IMG/VR virus record: IMGVR_UViG_2693429700_000020
Reading direction: 5' to 3' (one strand)
Length of the DNA stretch: 14,388 nucleotides
DNA from: a virus
Taxonomy: Duplodnaviria; Heunggongvirae; Uroviricota; Caudoviricetes
The stretch's first letter is position 1, and each line of letters begins with the position of its first letter. Below are positions 5,303 to 12,300 of this stretch, piece after piece. Below the pieces are notes generated by a model. The model saw only the letters and a list, made by a program, of their open reading frames with translations. It had not been told where the DNA came from and ran no database searches. Position numbers and translations under genes: made by a program.

Positions 5303-5832
5303 TGGTTGCCTCCTTTGCGAAGCTCAGCGGCGAAGGCTACTGCGTGATCATGATGTTCAAGTGTGTATGCGCACTCAGCAAACATCTCCACGCCCTGCGC
5401 TCGTACTTCAGCCAGGAAAGCGTCGGTGGCTGGGGTGTCTGATTGCAGAGACTTTGCGCGATAGTCATTCCACCCTCTTGCATACATGGGATTAACTTGC
5501 ACTCCATCTTTTACGCAATATGCCTGCCCTCCACGGTTGATAACCTTGATTTCGTCCATAGCGCCAGACTTCAGCCCCGCATTCTCCGCCGCCAGCGCTG
5601 AAAACTTCTCGTGTGCCAACTTAACAGCTGCATCAGCCTGCTTAATTGACTCAATCGCTTTCTGCTGGTCTTCGGCCAGCGCATTAGCACGCACCAGTTG
5701 CACTTCCAGTTGCGTTGCCAAATCGCTGATCAGCTTTGCCACACTACGCATATCAACGGCACCACATTCTGCTTTCAGTTCCGAAGCCATCTCATGCCCG
5801 GCGGAAACTAACCCTTTGATATTACTTTCCAT
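5299..5832 (-). CDS. Coiled-coil phage protein, possibly Ea22-like
   Basis: ATG at 5832 with GAGGG ribosome-binding site; Ala/Glu/Lys-rich helical N-terminal half plus a globular C-terminal half. Confidence 0.45.
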   Translation of the reverse strand: MESNIKGLVSAGHEMASELKAECGAVDMRSVAKLISDLATQLEVQLVRANALAEDQQKAIESIKQADAAVKLAHEKFSALAAENAGLKSGAMDEIKVINRGGQAYCVKDGVQVNPMYARGWNDYRAKSLQSDTPATDAFLAEVRAQGVEMFAECAYTLEHHDHAVAFAAELRKGGNQ

Positions 5833-5893
5833 CTTTACCCTCGCTTATCCACATAACTTATTGATTACATTGATAACTAAAAAGATCGTCGAT

Positions 5894-6238
5894 TCAGAAC
5901 TCTTCGATGTTCCAGCCACCACCTGCTTTCTTTGGTTTAACCGTTACCCCGATGATTCGGAACGGATATTGATCTGCGGCGACTTTGGTTTTCACCCTGG
6001 CGTCGTCGGTCCAGAAACCTTTCACTTCGTGCAGTTCCATCTCGCCGGTGGCGAGCATCACAGCAAAATCGGGCGTATAGAACGTGTTGTCAGCTAACCG
6101 CAGCTTGAGACCCTCGAATCGATACCAGGCGATTTCCCCTGCACGTTTACGCTGCTCAAGGTGCTGGCAATACGCAGATTCTGTTTTGTTCATCTGGCCT
6201 GTTTTGAGTCGACCAAGAGCCTGTATCTGTTTTCTCAT
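5894..6238 (-). CDS. DUF1064-like protein (PD-(D/E)xK-like fold)
   Basis: ATG at 6238; motifs TPDF ... ELHEVKG fit the DUF1064 pattern as recalled; first gene after the internal operator-flanked promoter. Confidence 0.55.
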   Translation of the reverse strand: MRKQIQALGRLKTGQMNKTESAYCQHLEQRKRAGEIAWYRFEGLKLRLADNTFYTPDFAVMLATGEMELHEVKGFWTDDARVKTKVAADQYPFRIIGVTVKPKKAGGGWNIEEF

Positions 6239-6241
6239 GAT

Positions 6242-6318
6242 TTACCCCTGAGGTAATTAAAAACCACATAAGACACGAAATCAATAGATTTTAGTATATT
6301 TTATTACCCACCAGGTAA
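6242..6318 (-). promoter_or_regulatory. Internal promoter flanked by two perfect operators (TTACCCCTGAGGTAA 6242-6256; TTACCCACCAGGTAA 6304-6318)
   Basis: Minus-strand -35 TTGATT (6284..6279), 17-bp spacer, -10 TTTAAT (6261..6256); operator centres 62 bp apart, the same geometry as the early promoter at 9347-9423. Confidence 0.6.
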
Positions 6319-6330
6319 TCATCTAGACGT

Positions 6331-6350
6331 AAAAAAATGCGCTATCGCGC
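6331..6350 (-). terminator. Weak candidate terminator after the P-like gene (GCGC-gata-GCGC stem followed by seven U)
   Basis: Minus-strand CAGCGCGATAGCGCATTTTTTTAC; the stem is only 4-5 bp, so low confidence. Confidence 0.3.
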
Positions 6351-6355
6351 TGGTA

Positions 6356-7141
6356 TTACTTGATAAATCCTGCCGCCTTTCCCCGCCTGTATTCCTCCAT
6401 CAGCCACTGTGCCGGTGTTATTCCACCCAGGGTGGCGGCGTTAGGCATGCACCCGAAACTTCGCCCTGGCGGGTGGTAAACGTCTCTCCCTGTGTCCGGA
6501 GGCGTACTCATGGGTTCTGGCTTTGCCTGTATGCTGATCACCGGATCGGGTATCTGCTGTCCGGAAGCCACCTTTTTCGCCCAATCATCGAGCAACCTGC
6601 GCGCGTGTTTCTCAACCTCAATCTCGCTAAGCTGGCGCTGATACATTGCGCGGCGGGTATCACATACAACCCAGTACATAACCGGATGCCGCCACGGGAA
6701 TCTTTCGGGACCGCCAGGATATAAACTTTTTTCCTTGCTGTACCGGTGAAACTCCGCCATCACATCGTCAATGGTGACACCAAGAACCATCTTGCTGTCT
6801 TTGCACCACTTGATAAATTGCCCAGGCGACGGCCAGAACGGAGATTCACTGGCGCGGGCGTGGCGCATACCAGCAGAAACCTGTTCACGGGTTCGGATCC
6901 CACCTTCGGCAAACGCAGCAATCCACTGCTGTTTTGCAGCGACTTCCTGCTCTGGCGTCTTCAGGTTGGTTACCACTGCCGCCGGAAACAGTTGTTTCAG
7001 CTGTTTGAAAAGGGCATCAACAAGCCTCTCTGCTGACATGTTCACCACATTGTCATTGTTGACGTACTGATGCTCATAACCTGACATGCGAGAAAGGGCT
7101 TCTCCGTCACGGTTTTGTATCGCGGTAAAAACGTTGTTCAC
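6356..7141 (-). CDS. Lambda P-like replication protein (helicase loader)
   Basis: KQQWIAAFAEGGIRTREQVSAGMRHARASESPFWPSPGQFIKWC parallels the lambda P segment RRQWVLAFRENGITTMEQVNAGMRVARRQNRPFLPSPGQFVAWC (recalled). Likely GTG start at 7141 with GGGAGGA ribosome-binding site, overlapping the O-like stop (GTGA). Confidence 0.85.
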   Translation of the reverse strand: MNNVFTAIQNRDGEALSRMSGYEHQYVNNDNVVNMSAERLVDALFKQLKQLFPAAVVTNLKTPEQEVAAKQQWIAAFAEGGIRTREQVSAGMRHARASESPFWPSPGQFIKWCKDSKMVLGVTIDDVMAEFHRYSKEKSLYPGGPERFPWRHPVMYWVVCDTRRAMYQRQLSEIEVEKHARRLLDDWAKKVASGQQIPDPVISIQAKPEPMSTPPDTGRDVYHPPGRSFGCMPNAATLGGITPAQWLMEEYRRGKAAGFIK

Positions 7142-7953
7142 AAGAAATCCTCCCACGCTTCAGGGCTGTTCCAGTGCGGAACGTTGTTATCAGGTAATGT
7201 TGATTGCTTCTGTCTGCTAATCTGCAGCCGCCTTGCCAGCTTCTGCTCCCACTGTGCCTGATGGTATGCCTTACCCTCAGCCATCCAGTAAATTCTGAAT
7301 TCTGCAAGTTCCTGTGCCGTTGGCAGACTGTCCAGGTAGATTCCCTGCAATGAGCTTTTCCGAAGAAAGTCATCTGATGGTTGCCATTGTTCATGCATGA
7401 CAAATTTGCCTAATTGCCCTGGCCCACCAGGAGGAACAAAGTTATTCATCACGGCGTTGTTTGCGCCGGGGTCATGAGGCACAGAATCCCCGGTTTTTGT
7501 CCTGCTCTCCCTCTCTTGGTTAAATGACTGGTTATATGACTGGTTCTGGATCCCGTTTTTGGGATCATTCAACATCCCGTTTTTGGGATCATTCAACATC
7601 CCGTTTTTGGGTATATTCCCGTTTTCGGGAACATTACCGTTTTCGGGTTCATTACACCCTTCCCGGTTGCCTTTAATGTTCCCGTTTTTGGTTATATTAA
7701 GAGAGAAAACCCGCACTCTTTTCGTCGCTCCCTTTCTCTCTCCGGTATCTGAAATAAGCCCCATTTTCATGAGCGATATAAGCCCGGACTGCACGGTTTT
7801 TTTATTCAGGCAAGTGTCTTTAACGAGGCGTTCTATGCTGGGGTAGCAGAGGTTATATTCATCGGCTCTGTCAGCCATCGAGAGCAGTATGAGCTTTAAT
7901 GATGAGCTACCTGGGTCTGTCTCCCAGGCCCAATCTGTTGCATGTCTGCTCAT
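7138..7953 (-). CDS. Replication initiator (O-like): N-terminal helix-turn-helix domain, repeat-encoded low-complexity linker, C-terminal domain
   Basis: ATG at 7953 with GGAG ribosome-binding site; sits directly upstream of the P-like gene; contains the iteron array, as lambda O contains ori. Confidence 0.7.
   Translation of the reverse strand: MSRHATDWAWETDPGSSSLKLILLSMADRADEYNLCYPSIERLVKDTCLNKKTVQSGLISLMKMGLISDTGERKGATKRVRVFSLNITKNGNIKGNREGCNEPENGNVPENGNIPKNGMLNDPKNGMLNDPKNGIQNQSYNQSFNQERESRTKTGDSVPHDPGANNAVMNNFVPPGGPGQLGKFVMHEQWQPSDDFLRKSSLQGIYLDSLPTAQELAEFRIYWMAEGKAYHQAQWEQKLARRLQISRQKQSTLPDNNVPHWNSPEAWEDFL
7552..7692. repeat. Iteron-like direct repeats (candidate replication origin) inside the O-like gene
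   Basis: CCCGTTTT(T/C)GGG core at 7552, 7576, 7600, 7618, about 7636 and 7681 (periods 24, 24, 18, 18); two exact 24-bp units CCCGTTTTTGGGATCATTCAACAT; a second short repeat ATGACTGGTT at 7525 and 7537. Confidence 0.7.
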
Positions 7954-7968
7954 GATTAATCTCCGCTA

Positions 7969-8169
7969 TCAGCTTGAATGTTGTGGGGAGGAATTAATCA
8001 TGATCTGCTTAATCTCTGCCCTGATGCGACGGTTTGATTCCATGGTGCACTCAACACAGTGTCCGTTGTAAACCCAGCGTTCACTGTCATGTCCGTGCTT
8101 ACATGATTTTCCGGTGTAGTAGCGTTTAAGTCCGCGCTTTGCGGCATCAATACGTGTAATGATTTCCAT
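7969..8169 (-). CDS. Small zinc-finger protein, TraR/DksA-like C4 type (66 aa)
   Basis: ATG at 8169 (the track ORF extends to TTG 8232); C-terminal HCVEC followed by a basic helix resembles the TraR/DksA CVEC zinc-finger motif; occupies the lambda cII position. Confidence 0.4.
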   Translation of the reverse strand: MEIITRIDAAKRGLKRYYTGKSCKHGHDSERWVYNGHCVECTMESNRRIRAEIKQIMINSSPQHSS

Positions 8170-8249
8170 GGTAAGCCCTGTTATTAGTATTGGGATTACG
8201 GTTATTTTGTGCTGACACAAAAAAAAGATCAACCAGATTTGGTTTTTTA

Positions 8250-8264
8250 TTACCTTTAAGGTGC
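8250..8264. promoter_or_regulatory. Imperfect operator-like site TTACC-tttaa-GGTGC just downstream of the tR1-like terminator
   Basis: 8 of 10 specified positions match the TTACC-N5-GGTAA palindrome; the GGTGC half-site is the same variant as at 8618-8632. Confidence 0.4.
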
Positions 8265-8270
8265 GAATAG

Positions 8271-8298
8271 ATATGAAAAGACCGCCGGATGGCGGTCT
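8271..8298 (-). terminator. Rho-independent terminator after the Cro-like gene (tR1-like position)
   Basis: Minus-strand AGACCGCC-atcc-GGCGGTCT followed by TTTCATAT. Confidence 0.6.
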
Positions 8299-8319
8299 AC
8301 AGAGGTTTGTGGCTGGATA

Positions 8320-8550
8320 TCATGAGTAGAAGAAGTATGCCAGTTCTGCTTTTGAGCGCAGCCATTGTCTTGTTTTACAGGCTTTAAAAAGCCCATTCAT
8401 CAATACTTTACCTGGCATTTTGCGCTTACCTGTTAAGTGAGTCTGGATATAGTGACTCGTCGTTCCGGCTTCCTGTGCGAAGGCTTCACGCTCATCCGGA
8501 GTAAGTGCAAGCCAGTGCTTTTTGAAATCGAAATGTCCGTTATCGCTCAT
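8320..8550 (-). CDS. Cro-like small helix-turn-helix DNA-binding protein
   Basis: 76 aa; first gene of the minus-strand operon, divergent from the repressor; candidate HTH at AFAQEAGTTSHYIQTHLTGKR. Confidence 0.5.
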   Translation of the reverse strand: MSDNGHFDFKKHWLALTPDEREAFAQEAGTTSHYIQTHLTGKRKMPGKVLMNGLFKACKTRQWLRSKAELAYFFYS

Positions 8551-8586
8551 AGCTATTGCCTGATATTTATTTCAGATAATAAATAT

Positions 8587-8649
8587 TCACCCATAAGGTA
8601 ACAAAAATCAAGGATAGTTACCTATGGGGTGCATTTACCTGTTGGGTAA
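8587..8649. promoter_or_regulatory. Operator cluster between the Cro-like and repressor genes: TCACCCATAAGGTAA (8587-8601), TTACCTATGGGGTGC (8618-8632), TTACCTGTTGGGTAA (8635-8649)
   Basis: Three copies (one perfect, two near) of the palindrome in the divergent regulatory region; a minus-strand -35 TTGTTA / -10 TATTAT candidate overlaps the first site. Confidence 0.65.
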
Positions 8650-8704
8650 TATTGCTTTAAATTGAATCATCTACTGATTCATATATGAGGCGATTCTCCA
8701 GAAA

Positions 8705-9289
8705 ATGAAAAGTATCCAGGACGTCCGCAGGCAAAATCTCAACGACTTGATCGACCGTGAATTCAATGGTGTTCAGACGCGGATGGCAGAAAAACTTGGA
8801 ACTCAGGCAAATCTGGTAAACCGCTGGGCTCTTGGCAAGAAGGTTATCGGCGACCAGGTTGCGCGAAAAATTGAAGCTGCCGCCAATAAACCCCGTAACT
8901 GGCTTGATATCGATCGCTCGCTTTCTCAGGAGGGGTTTCAGCCTGTCGGCCCAAGCGACATTGGTCAGCTGGCGGCTCACAACCTGGAACGCTGGATGAG
9001 CGAAAGCCGCGACCTTTCAACACAGGGAAAACTTCACCGCGCATCCGGCGTCGCCCAGGTGACAATCAGCCGCCTGTTAAACAATGAGGTCAGTGTTTCC
9101 ATTTCCACCCTGGAGAATGTTGCATCCGCATTCGGGCGTCACGGATATGAACTACTGATTCACCCGCATGACCCTGCAACTATCAACTATGACCGCTCGC
9201 GCTACGCATTGTTACCCGAAACCGAGAAAGCAAAGATCGAAAGTTACATTGAATTTGTCATCAACCAGAACGAAAAAAACAAACAATAA
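8705..9289 (+). CDS. Phage repressor (CI-like role) with two XRE-type helix-turn-helix domains and no S24 peptidase domain
   Basis: 194 aa; HTH-like segments QTRMAEKLGTQANLVNRW and LHRASGVAQVTISRLLNN; lies between the two operator regions like lambda cI; weak ribosome-binding site. Confidence 0.7.
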   Translation: MKSIQDVRRQNLNDLIDREFNGVQTRMAEKLGTQANLVNRWALGKKVIGDQVARKIEAAANKPRNWLDIDRSLSQEGFQPVGPSDIGQLAAHNLERWMSESRDLSTQGKLHRASGVAQVTISRLLNNEVSVSISTLENVASAFGRHGYELLIHPHDPATINYDRSRYALLPETEKAKIESYIEFVINQNEKNKQ

Positions 9290-9310
9290 AATCATATTTT
9301 TCAGTAAGTA

Positions 9311-9336
9311 AGCCGCCTTCTGGCGGCTTTTTTATT
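9311..9336 (+). terminator. Strong rho-independent terminator after the repressor gene
   Basis: AGCCGCC-ttct-GGCGGCT followed by TTTTTATT. Confidence 0.8.
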
Positions 9337-9346
9337 GCCTGTTCAA

Positions 9347-9423
9347 TTACCTAATGGGTAATTTTTTTAACTCATATCTATTGACATCAAACCAGATACG
9401 CATAATTATTACCTAAACGGTAA
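9347..9423 (+). promoter_or_regulatory. Early (pL-like) promoter flanked by two perfect operators (TTACCTAATGGGTAA 9347-9361; TTACCTAAACGGTAA 9409-9423)
   Basis: -35 TTGACA at 9381-9386; -10 within CATAATTAT at 9401-9409; operator centres 62 bp apart, the downstream one overlapping the -10 and start-site region. Confidence 0.7.
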
Positions 9424-9442
9424 CAGACCGAGGTAACAAGTT

Positions 9443-9595
9443 ATGCAGTGGAAAATCATCAACGGTTGGTACTGCGTTACTGCATGCGGATTCATGAGCT
9501 GGAAGTTCCGCACCTTACAGGAAGGCATTAAGTGGGCTTTCGTCAGCAAAGAAGCTCGCGATGTGGCCAACGATAACGAGATATGGGAGGGATGA
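9443..9595 (+). CDS. Small hypothetical protein (50 aa), first gene of the early operon
   Basis: ATG at 9443 with GAGG ribosome-binding site; stop TGA at 9593-9595 sits inside the ribosome-binding region of the next gene. Below the cutoff of the supplied ORF track. Confidence 0.4.
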   Translation: MQWKIINGWYCVTACGFMSWKFRTLQEGIKWAFVSKEARDVANDNEIWEG

Positions 9596-9597
9596 TA

Positions 9598-9897
9598 ATG
9601 AACGTTAATCAGCAGAAAAATCTTCAAAAAATCATGCTGGCATTCGACAAGGACTACCGCCTGTCAGAACAGCTATATGACCGACAAGTTGAACTGATTG
9701 AGAGTATCCGGCTTCACCAACTGGCCTCAACTTTCGACGTTGTAACAGGCAAAGGCGTTCGTCAGGAAGTGCTGGAGGCTGCTAAAGACAGCCCTGAGTT
9801 CGAAGAACTGATGGATGCCTACCGGCGCGAGGCAATGGCAATTATCGCCCGCTGGGATCTGGCTGATCAGCTTGATGGGCAGAGGGACGCGGCATGA
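9598..9897 (+). CDS. Hypothetical early protein (99 aa)
   Basis: ATG at 9598 preceded by GGGAGGG (the track ORF starts at 9583); stop overlaps the exonuclease start (ATGA). No family recognised. Confidence 0.5.
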   Translation: MNVNQQKNLQKIMLAFDKDYRLSEQLYDRQVELIESIRLHQLASTFDVVTGKGVRQEVLEAAKDSPEFEELMDAYRREAMAIIARWDLADQLDGQRDAA

Positions 9898-11891: not shown

Positions 11892-12033
11892 GTGCGCTGC
11901 TAAGGCACTGGAGCAAATGGTCAGGATGGTACTTATTCCTGGCCTCTGTTTCAGCATGGCTTTATCTGCTGGCATTAATTTTCAGAGAGGGTTGGATTAA
12001 GTGAGAAAGTTAAGCCGACTTGAAAAATATCAC

Positions 12034-12300
12034 ATGAACAAGGTTTCAATGCGCAGTCCGTCAAAGATTGTCGCCGTTACTCCTGCGGCGATAGAGATCG
12101 AAAAACGCGCGATTGAAAGAGAGAAAAAAGGGCAGTTCCGCATTGCCGCTCACCTTTGGCTTCAGTGTATGGATGTTGCTTCTGGTGATGTTGAGCGTGC
12201 AAGGATCGCGGTTCGCAGGGACCAATGTATCACAAAAGGTAACGGCCTTCGCCGTGGCGACTATAGCGGCATAGGATGTTGTGGGGTGGTTTATGACTAA
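12034..12300 (+). CDS. PerC-family transcriptional regulator-like protein
   Basis: RIAAHLWLQCMDVA ... ERARIAVRRDQCIT resembles the PerC signature as recalled; the most likely start is ATG 12049 (AAGG ribosome-binding site); the track ORF begins at 12001. Confidence 0.5.
   Translation: MNKVSMRSPSKIVAVTPAAIEIEKRAIEREKKGQFRIAAHLWLQCMDVASGDVERARIAVRRDQCITKGNGLRRGDYSGIGCCGVVYD

Follow-up and report, generated by a model that had tools for sequence, protein, structure and literature searches.

The intergenic region between the P-like replication gene and the DUF1064 gene of a phiV10/epsilon15-like (Uetakevirus) prophage of E. coli raises the question of whether the accessory operon that begins at DUF1064 is switched off directly by the prophage repressor (Rep) in the lysogen, or is instead reached by transcripts read through from upstream. 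We addressed this question in IMG/VR record IMGVR_UViG_2693429700_000020, a stretch of 14,388 nucleotides (nt) that is referred to here, at its full length, as the window. Judging from its sequence and from its conservation among relatives, positions 6242-6350 probably constitute a self-contained cassette, a secondary early promoter that would drive the accessory operon and be repressed by Rep. The elements of this internal module are listed below in the order in which a transcript on the minus strand would meet them (operators are given without a strand).

6331 to 6350, minus strand: weak intrinsic-terminator-like element, consisting of a GCGC-GATA-GCGC hairpin (6350-6339), one A and U7 (6337-6331)
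6304 to 6318: distal operator, an exact match to the operator motif, reading TTACCTGGTGGGTAA on the minus strand; its center lies at about -62 from the predicted start
6285 to 6303, minus strand: A/T-rich gap of 19 nt between the distal operator and the -35, reading taaaatatactaaaatcta; its length was 19 in every internal module examined
6279 to 6284, minus strand: -35 hexamer TTGATT, read from the sequence (nucleotide diversity, pi, 0.007 in the close relatives described below)
6256 to 6261, minus strand: -10 hexamer TTTAAT, located 17 nt past the -35 and lacking an A at -11, from the sequence and a weight matrix
6242 to 6256: proximal operator, an exact match to the motif, reading TTACCTCAGGGGTAA on the minus strand; its center coincides with the predicted start at about 6249

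The first T of the proximal operator (TTACCTCAGGGGTAA) is also the last T of the -10, and a Shine-Dalgarno sequence, AGGGG (6249-6245), is contained within this operator, which is followed by atc and then by the ATG of the DUF1064 gene at 6238. The two operator centers are 62 base pairs (bp) apart, or 5.9 helical turns, which places them on the same face of the helix. A first reading of this region (the original prediction) had proposed these coordinates and spacings, and all of them were confirmed to the base. It had also proposed that the module duplicates the layout of the early promoter of leftward type (PL), and this was upheld, as the offsets are identical and the center-to-center distance is 62 bp in both. 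The PL module was read as follows.

9310 to 9423, plus strand: the whole PL module, with a strong terminator, distal operator, -35, -10 and proximal operator; the ATG of its first gene is at 9443
9310 to 9329 plus a T-run, plus strand: PL terminator, -21.1 kcal/mol, z-score (z) -6.8
9347 to 9361, plus strand: PL distal operator TTACCTAATGGGTAA, a motif match, followed by a 19-nt gap
9381 to 9386, plus strand: PL -35 TTGACA, read from the sequence, followed by a 17-nt spacer
9404 to 9409, plus strand: PL -10 AATTAT, weight-matrix rank 2
9409 to 9423, plus strand: PL proximal operator TTACCTAAACGGTAA, a motif match that begins with the final T of the -10

Aligned without gaps, the two 77-bp modules were identical at 49 of 77 positions, and at 29 of 57 positions outside the operator half-sites, compared with 14.3 +/- 3.3 for random 77-mers of the window.

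The operator motif, TTACC-N5-GGTAA, occurred in the 14.4 kb as six exact and two one-mismatch sites, where 0.28 would be expected, and none of 200 shuffled sequences reached eight. Motif sites were paired at four places (2316/2334, 6242/6304, 8587/8635 and 9347/9409). The same motif is annotated in Salmonella phage epsilon15 (GenBank AY150271.2), where all seven 'protein_bind / repressor / lysogeny' features that we examined were ATTACC-N5-GGTAAT. These seven sites, dispersed at operon starts as in the window, are located ahead of the terminase gene, ahead of the portal operon, in the gap between ant and the tailspike gene, at PL (three sites) and at 35906-35922, between a replication gene and the next gene. 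The last of these corresponds, as its orthologue, to the distal internal operator of the window. Of the internal module, the epsilon15 record shows this distal site alone, with no mark for its proximal partner 62 bp away (35969-35983), for the intervening promoter or for the equivalence with PL.

The protein that would bind these sites is encoded by the window itself.

8705 to 9289, plus strand: repressor (Rep) gene, 194 amino acids (aa), a full-length match to the Rep of Salmonella phage SPC32H (PDB 5D50, E-value 4e-42)

The window's Rep is 100% identical to the repressor of phage vB_EcoP_ZX5 and only 42% identical to that of epsilon15. Overexpression of the ZX5 repressor abolished free phage and lowered lysis-gene transcripts by more than 99.9%, in a study in which four promoters were predicted and no operators were mapped (PMC9782041). 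According to two papers citing the work on SPC32H, its Rep binds DNA as a tetramer in which the pairs of heads that read a palindrome are drawn from different dimers ('trans'), and it is inactivated by the antirepressor Ant (PMC9638917; PMC9986798). By homology, the window's Rep would be a tetramer as well. The antirepressor gene lies outside the window, and a Cro-like, 76-aa protein of a repressor family is encoded next to Rep. The enrichment of the motif, the epsilon15 annotation and the homology of Rep together supported the earlier identification of these sites as operators of the resident repressor.

We evaluated the conservation of the module in several sets of relatives. In seven phage genomes picked via repressor homology (Rep 42-100% identical), the internal pair was present in all seven with its centers exactly 62 bp apart (at 35972 and 36034 in SPC32H), and the PL pair was spaced by 62 bp, or by 63 bp in one genome. 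A pattern search of IMG/VR, which required exact half-sites and therefore yielded a biased set, found at least 120 stretches, most of them with two operator pairs about 3 kb apart; 185 of the 192 pairs in this set had TTGA at the offset predicted for the -35 in exactly one of the two orientations. Three immunity groups were also sampled through the Rep protein alone, which avoided the bias of the pattern search. The internal 62-bp pair was found in 74 of 80 E. coli-type loci, and in every one of the 74 with an intact P-DUF1064 junction. E. coli-type loci without the pair had short upstream DNA or were deletion or rearrangement variants whose homology ended before the module, and the five that had enough upstream DNA and yet no pair were all such variants. 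The pair was likewise present in 36 of 38 Salmonella-type loci with enough upstream DNA and in 36 of 37 Klebsiella-type loci. Only 62 bp was seen between the internal operators in the loci examined, and the PL operators were 62 or 63 bp apart, rarely 61 or 64.

The anatomy of the module was then compared across 16 representatives that were mutually less than 85% identical. Its order was fixed: GCGC-N4-GCGC, one A (G in the Klebsiella type), T7, some 12 bases that vary, the distal operator, an A/T-rich gap of 19 nt with CTA at its end, TTGA(T/A)(T/A), a 17-nt spacer of varying sequence, TT(T/A)AAT or ATAAAT, and the proximal operator, with the ATG 2-5 nt further on in most (about 12 nt in one of them). 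TTGA and the 17-nt spacing were invariant, and positions 5-6 of the -35 alternated between A and T. The central N5 of the proximal operator was purine-rich in all lineages, with atcATG next, and forms a Shine-Dalgarno sequence with the GG of the half-site. The module was kept despite differing neighbors, which were a P-like, DnaT-like or other gene upstream and DUF1064 or RuvC downstream. We also computed diversity over 5800-9700 in 50 close relatives of the E. coli type whose repressor is identical. Pi was 0.002 in the half-sites, 0.004 in the terminator and 0.007 in the -35 and -10. The whole region had a mean of 0.020, and 153 four-fold degenerate sites in DUF1064 and P gave 0.047. Nothing but the shortness of the motif would favor the view that these palindromes and hexamers are chance resemblances without function. 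This view is refuted by the comparative data, in which the exact spacing was conserved in about 150 independent loci and the half-sites were invariant amid variable neighbors, as well as by the shuffled sequences above; we assign it a negligible probability.

In most non-E. coli relatives, the 19-nt gap behind the distal operator carries a palindrome, ATGCGCAT (taaaatATGCGCATtgcta), which has been lost (atactaaaatc) from the window (6285-6303) and from other phiV10-type phages. This palindrome may be a site for another factor. The gap as a whole is a possible UP-like or bendable segment.

In order to evaluate the internal promoter, we compared it with sigma-70 criteria and with a weight matrix. 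TTGATT and the 17-nt spacer agreed with the sigma-70 criteria (a TTGACA-like -35 and a spacer of 16-18 nt); the -10 did not show the combination of an A at -11 and a T at -7. On a crude weight matrix, which uses Hawley-McClure frequencies and is indicative only, the internal candidate ranked 16 among 28,706 window positions (top 0.06%), behind PL (2), the rightward promoter PR (3), a candidate behind the cro-like gene (post-cro, 8) and a candidate resembling a repressor maintenance promoter (PRM-like, 10), and all five candidates adjoin operators. The internal -10 of relatives was TTAAAT, ATAAAT or TTATAT, in which a register shifted by one base (TAAATT or TATATT, with an 18-nt spacer) has both -11A and -7T. 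Unlike these, the window's shifted register, TTAATT, fails the -11A/-7T rule. From its sequence, the internal promoter would thus be of moderate quality with a good -35.

Several observations weigh against the proposed Rep-repressed promoter. It was not called by a scan of the window for consensus sigma-70 promoters, as TTTAAT has no A at the second position of the hexamer (-11A), and the leader predicted from a start near 6249 would be only about 11 nt long, with the Shine-Dalgarno sequence at its 5' end. Some of the constraint on the -35 and -10 could simply mirror the overall conservation of a short intergenic region. The hairpin of the internal terminator (-7.4 kcal/mol, z -1.42; 4-bp stem) was not distinguishable from shuffled sequences, and its stem never varies, so that there were no compensatory changes and hence no support from covariation. 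A literature search for operator or transcription-start data in the genus returned nothing usable, the primary epsilon15 and SPC32H studies being outside its coverage. Finally, one tetramer is said to be sufficient for SPC32H repression in a secondary source (PMC9638917), and a lone tetramer would here have to engage two sites 62 bp apart.

The missing -11A and the failure of the scan to call a promoter are also what would be anticipated if the operators had no local promoter at all, and if Rep bound there acted as a roadblock, similar to a mycobacteriophage 'stoperator', that backs up the weak terminator and, in the lysogen, halts transcription escaping from the replication operon toward the accessory and late genes, with the -35 and -10 resemblance being incidental. 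A second block would be useful behind so weak a terminator, and Rep sites without an evident promoter do occur, for example directly ahead of the terminase ATG. However, a roadblock would have no need for two sites 62 bp apart or for a fixed 19-nt gap, and it does not account for the invariance of TTGA, the 17-nt spacing and T..AAT across lineages that differ in spacer sequence. The layout moreover matches base for base that of PL, which is a strong consensus promoter, and the internal candidate stands near the top of the weight-matrix ranking. We therefore regard a roadblock without a promoter as unlikely, and retain the Rep-repressed promoter as the preferred reading.

The original prediction had interpreted the 62 bp as roughly six helical turns, consistent with cooperative or looped binding. 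The part of this claim that concerns spacing was supported, in that 5.9 turns is close to integral and the distance is constrained, and a tetrameric Rep, as expected from homology, fits paired binding. Rep binding at both sites, initiation of transcription between them and the formation of a loop are steps that we infer. The fixed distance between the distal operator and the -35 is not required for promoter function, which argues for a stereospecific link between the bound sites. Given the cross-dimer pairing of heads described for SPC32H Rep (PMC9638917; PMC9986798), one tetramer could in principle bind a pair of palindromes, and the SPC32H Rep/Ant switch (PDB 5D50, 5D4Z) resembles that of the window in having both a homologous Rep and a 62-bp internal pair. 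The oligomeric state of Rep expected from homology (tetramer or higher), the spread of operator clusters over the genome and the Cro-like 76-aa protein encoded beside Rep would also suit a different main role for the internal pair than that of a local switch, either anchoring Rep bridges that reach the PR and PL operators 2.3-3.1 kb away, as in the looping between lambda OL and OR, or, in lytic growth, being bound by the Cro-like protein. The strict local geometry is more simply explained by local occlusion, and such a role would add to the Rep-repressed promoter without excluding it; as an explanation in its own right we hold it to be even less probable than the roadblock.

The Rep-repressed promoter suggests the following order of events. 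A leaky intrinsic terminator would end the replication operon, and a sigma-70-type promoter would drive the accessory ('nin-like') operon from DUF1064 onward. In the lysogen, Rep would occupy both the proximal operator, centered on +1 and overlapping the ribosome-binding site as well as the final base of the -10, and the distal operator at about -62. Both sites would be held, probably by one tetramer that bends the 62-bp segment, with the bend in the A/T-rich gap, or else by units that interact cooperatively, and occupancy of the two would block RNA polymerase. Upon inactivation of Rep (by Ant in relatives), the internal promoter would become active along with PL, PR and the remaining promoters under Rep control. 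An antitermination cascade would be unnecessary, and read-through of the weak terminator would add transcripts from upstream.

The terminator was the weakest of four in the window, the others having energies of -15 to -21 kcal/mol (z -3.9 to -6.8), and it was not called by a consensus scan, its 4-bp stem being below the 5-pair rule. In all lineages the GCGC stems and the T7 run are conserved and the loop varies; in the phiV10 record, a 'putative rho-independent terminator' is marked in the P-DUF1064 gap, and nothing else is marked there. Given such a terminator, transcription of the replication operon probably runs on in part into the accessory operon after derepression. The earlier claim that the accessory operon is directly repressed in the lysogen rather than reached by read-through was consequently borne out in its first half, as direct repression is well supported, and overstated in its second; direct repression as well as read-through is likely. 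Antitermination of the lambda type was considered and rejected, as no N or Q family was found among the early genes with PHROG or Pfam, the boxA pattern occurred at chance level in the window, and no Rfam family matched in it.

The layout of the prophage is lambda-like, with the repressor gene between the leftward-type promoter (on the plus strand here) and a series of rightward genes on the minus strand, in the order cro-like gene, small gene, O/DnaT-like gene, P-like gene, DUF1064, about ten accessory genes and the terminase genes. It shares with lambda a repressor located between divergent early promoters, cro, O and P, and an accessory block that opens with a recombination or resolvase gene. 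In lambda, however, N antitermination reaches the delayed-early (nin) genes, whereas the rightward units of the window have terminator-operator-promoter cassettes of their own, and the rightward region is punctuated by further cassettes behind the cro-like gene and before the terminase gene (a terminator with two adjacent operators). The operators also differ in placement, flanking the promoter at -62 and +1 in the window and forming a tandem triplet in lambda.

Loops that enclose a promoter, or cooperative binding at integral numbers of turns, are known from gal OE/OI, from lac O1/O3 and from lambda cI at 5-6 turns. Short repression loops have been discussed (PMC2682762). The window has in common with the gal and lac loops operators on the same face of the helix, a promoter between them and, by homology, a multivalent repressor; its 62 bp falls short of the 92-113 bp of the classic natural loops. 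In mycobacteriophage L5, gp71 binds 'stoperators' that are asymmetric, orientation-dependent and act on elongation. As in L5, a single repressor with many sites in the prophage would silence several transcription units directly in the window. Unlike those of L5, the window's sites are palindromic and are placed on promoter elements at PL and at the internal module.

The class of site and its dispersal are already known from the epsilon15 annotation, and the repressor family has been structurally characterized. The internal cassette is real but largely ordinary, as paired operators around a promoter are a textbook concept. What is possibly new is the second internal operator, the promoter between the operators, the exact equivalence with PL and the invariance of the arrangement throughout the genus. 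The second internal operator and the promoter, which are unmarked in both epsilon15 and phiV10, correct and extend the existing annotation. If the proposed control is correct, a common type of E. coli prophage would silence its accessory genes by direct repression at each operon start and not through a lambda-like cascade, and the module would provide a compact promoter-operator pair for studying how a tetrameric repressor with cross-dimer pairing of heads engages sites 62 bp apart.

The remaining operators of the window were located by the motif scan, and include two-mismatch sites at 8618 and 8250.

8587 to 8649: PR/PRM operator cluster of three sites
8587 to 8601: operator in the PR spacer, one mismatch
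8618 to 8632: middle operator of the PR/PRM cluster, two mismatches
8635 to 8649: exact operator overlapping the PRM-like -35
8250 to 8264: post-cro operator, two mismatches, followed by TTGATC-17-CAAAAT (weight-matrix rank 8)
2316 to 2348: two adjacent operators with centers 18 bp apart, behind a terminator (2356-2392) and before the ATG of the terminase small-subunit gene

A candidate maintenance promoter (PRM-like), TTTACC-18-TAAATT, is found at 8634-8663 on the plus strand, where it overlaps the operator at 8635-8649 and lies 42 nt ahead of the repressor ATG. Behind the cro-like gene, positions 8204-8298 form a third rightward cassette, composed of a strong terminator (8298-8279), the operator at 8250-8264 and TTGATC-17-CAAAAT, and having no proximal operator. 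A one-mismatch site occupies the post-cro position in phiV10, Tyrion, BUCT554 and BUCT711, and TTGATC-17-CAAAAT is probably the promoter of the replication operon. The adjacent pair at 2316-2348 stops 2 nt short of an ATG at about 2313, and the same adjacent pair is present in epsilon15 at 12-26 and 30-44, with the terminase gene at 47 and the first site annotated as a repressor site. These operators suggest that the late genes may follow the same control. In the RefSeq model of a near-identical genome, the 224-aa terminase small subunit begins at an upstream TTG and runs through the operators and the terminator; as a gene starting there would span both of these elements, its start is probably mis-set.

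The diversity analysis of the 50 close relatives further showed that the DNA within and beside the operators is unusually variable. The most diverse 5-nt windows were the center of the internal distal operator (6309-6313, pi 0.431) and the outer flank of the PL distal operator (9341-9345, 0.404), followed by the outer flank of the internal distal operator (6320-6324, 0.322) and the center of the PL distal operator (9353-9357, 0.243). The center of the internal proximal operator ranked sixth (0.219) and that of the two-mismatch PR site ranked eighth (0.203). The most polymorphic spots of this 3.9-kb early region were 6309-6313, 6319-6328, 6247-6251, 9337-9346, 9352-9357 and 8623-8627. We counted the inferred changes per site on local neighbor-joining trees, and obtained means of 0.8 for four-fold sites, 10.6 for the center of the internal distal operator and 5.5 for its flank, 5.4 for the center of the PL distal operator and 4.5 for its flank, 4.25 for the loop of the PL terminator, and 0-0.05 for the half-sites. 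In the E. coli lineage, operator centers and the outer flanks of distal operators had 5-13 times more inferred changes than four-fold sites, and taken together their variability was 5-20 times that of synonymous sites.

In the Salmonella- and Klebsiella-type groups (loci L209-L288), the center of the distal operator was conserved as AAAA(A/G/T), whereas it was nearly free in the E. coli type, which suggests that Rep lineages may read the operator center differently. Among 14 close Salmonella-type sequences, N5 was conserved as A4N and the flank alone was mildly variable. Linked haplotypes were visible across the flank, center and gap. When loci were grouped by identical flanks, nearly every one had a flank haplotype of its own. 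Hairpin-loop or Dcm deamination was considered as a cause of the hypervariability and was not supported, since all four bases occurred at the variable sites and the outer flank does not lie in a hairpin. The cause may equally be hypermutation, diversifying selection or an exchange of old regulatory haplotypes by recombination. A wider proposal, which we put forward as speculative and on balance doubtful, is that Uetakeviruses have exchanged the lambdoid antitermination cascade for duplicated 'terminator-operator-promoter-operator' cassettes, each with a promoter clamped by a single Rep tetramer in a 62-bp micro-loop, the DNA there being a substitution hotspot in the E. coli lineage. If this were true, the hotspot would point to local mutagenesis associated with the repressor, or to a diversifying selection by which operator strength is adjusted in phages whose repressors are identical.

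The prophage is integrated beside guaA. The window is 97-98% identical to phiV10, PAS61 and phiv142-3 and 99.4% identical to the chromosome of a chicken E. coli, and related sequence is present in 564 of 5,426 complete E. coli genomes. The two genes that border the internal module are as follows.

6356 to 7156, minus strand: P-like replication gene, the upstream neighbor (Pfam PF06992, E-value 1.5e-56), annotated as replication protein P in close relatives
5894 to 6238, minus strand: DUF1064 gene (Pfam PF06356), the first of the accessory operon; PHROG 190, 'Holliday junction resolvase', E-value 6.8e-42

The P-like open reading frame opens at a GTG at 7156, and the start annotated in relatives lies 15 nt further in. 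Downstream of the internal module, the accessory operon extends to about 2391. The first gene behind the module is always of a junction-resolvase type, either DUF1064 (PHROG 190) or the RuvC family, the latter occupying the DUF1064 slot in epsilon15 (35987-36451) and Tyrion (L004, 3952-4416); two unrelated resolvases have thus been swapped behind one promoter cassette.

Within the O/DnaT-like gene, direct-repeat arrays were present at 7517-7655, with units of 24 bp and 18 bp and an additional 12-bp repeat. The 24- and 18-bp units contain ATCCCGTTTTTGGGAT-like palindromes in about five copies, and the arrays look like origin iterons, by analogy with the lambda origin within gene O. Finally, a NinX-family protein (PHROG 'transcriptional regulator') is encoded at 2620-2961 on the minus strand, in the last part of the accessory operon, and the leftward operon encodes a PerC-like 'transcriptional activator' at 12001-12300 on the plus strand. 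Either of these could conceivably assist the late genes or a promoter with a weak -10.

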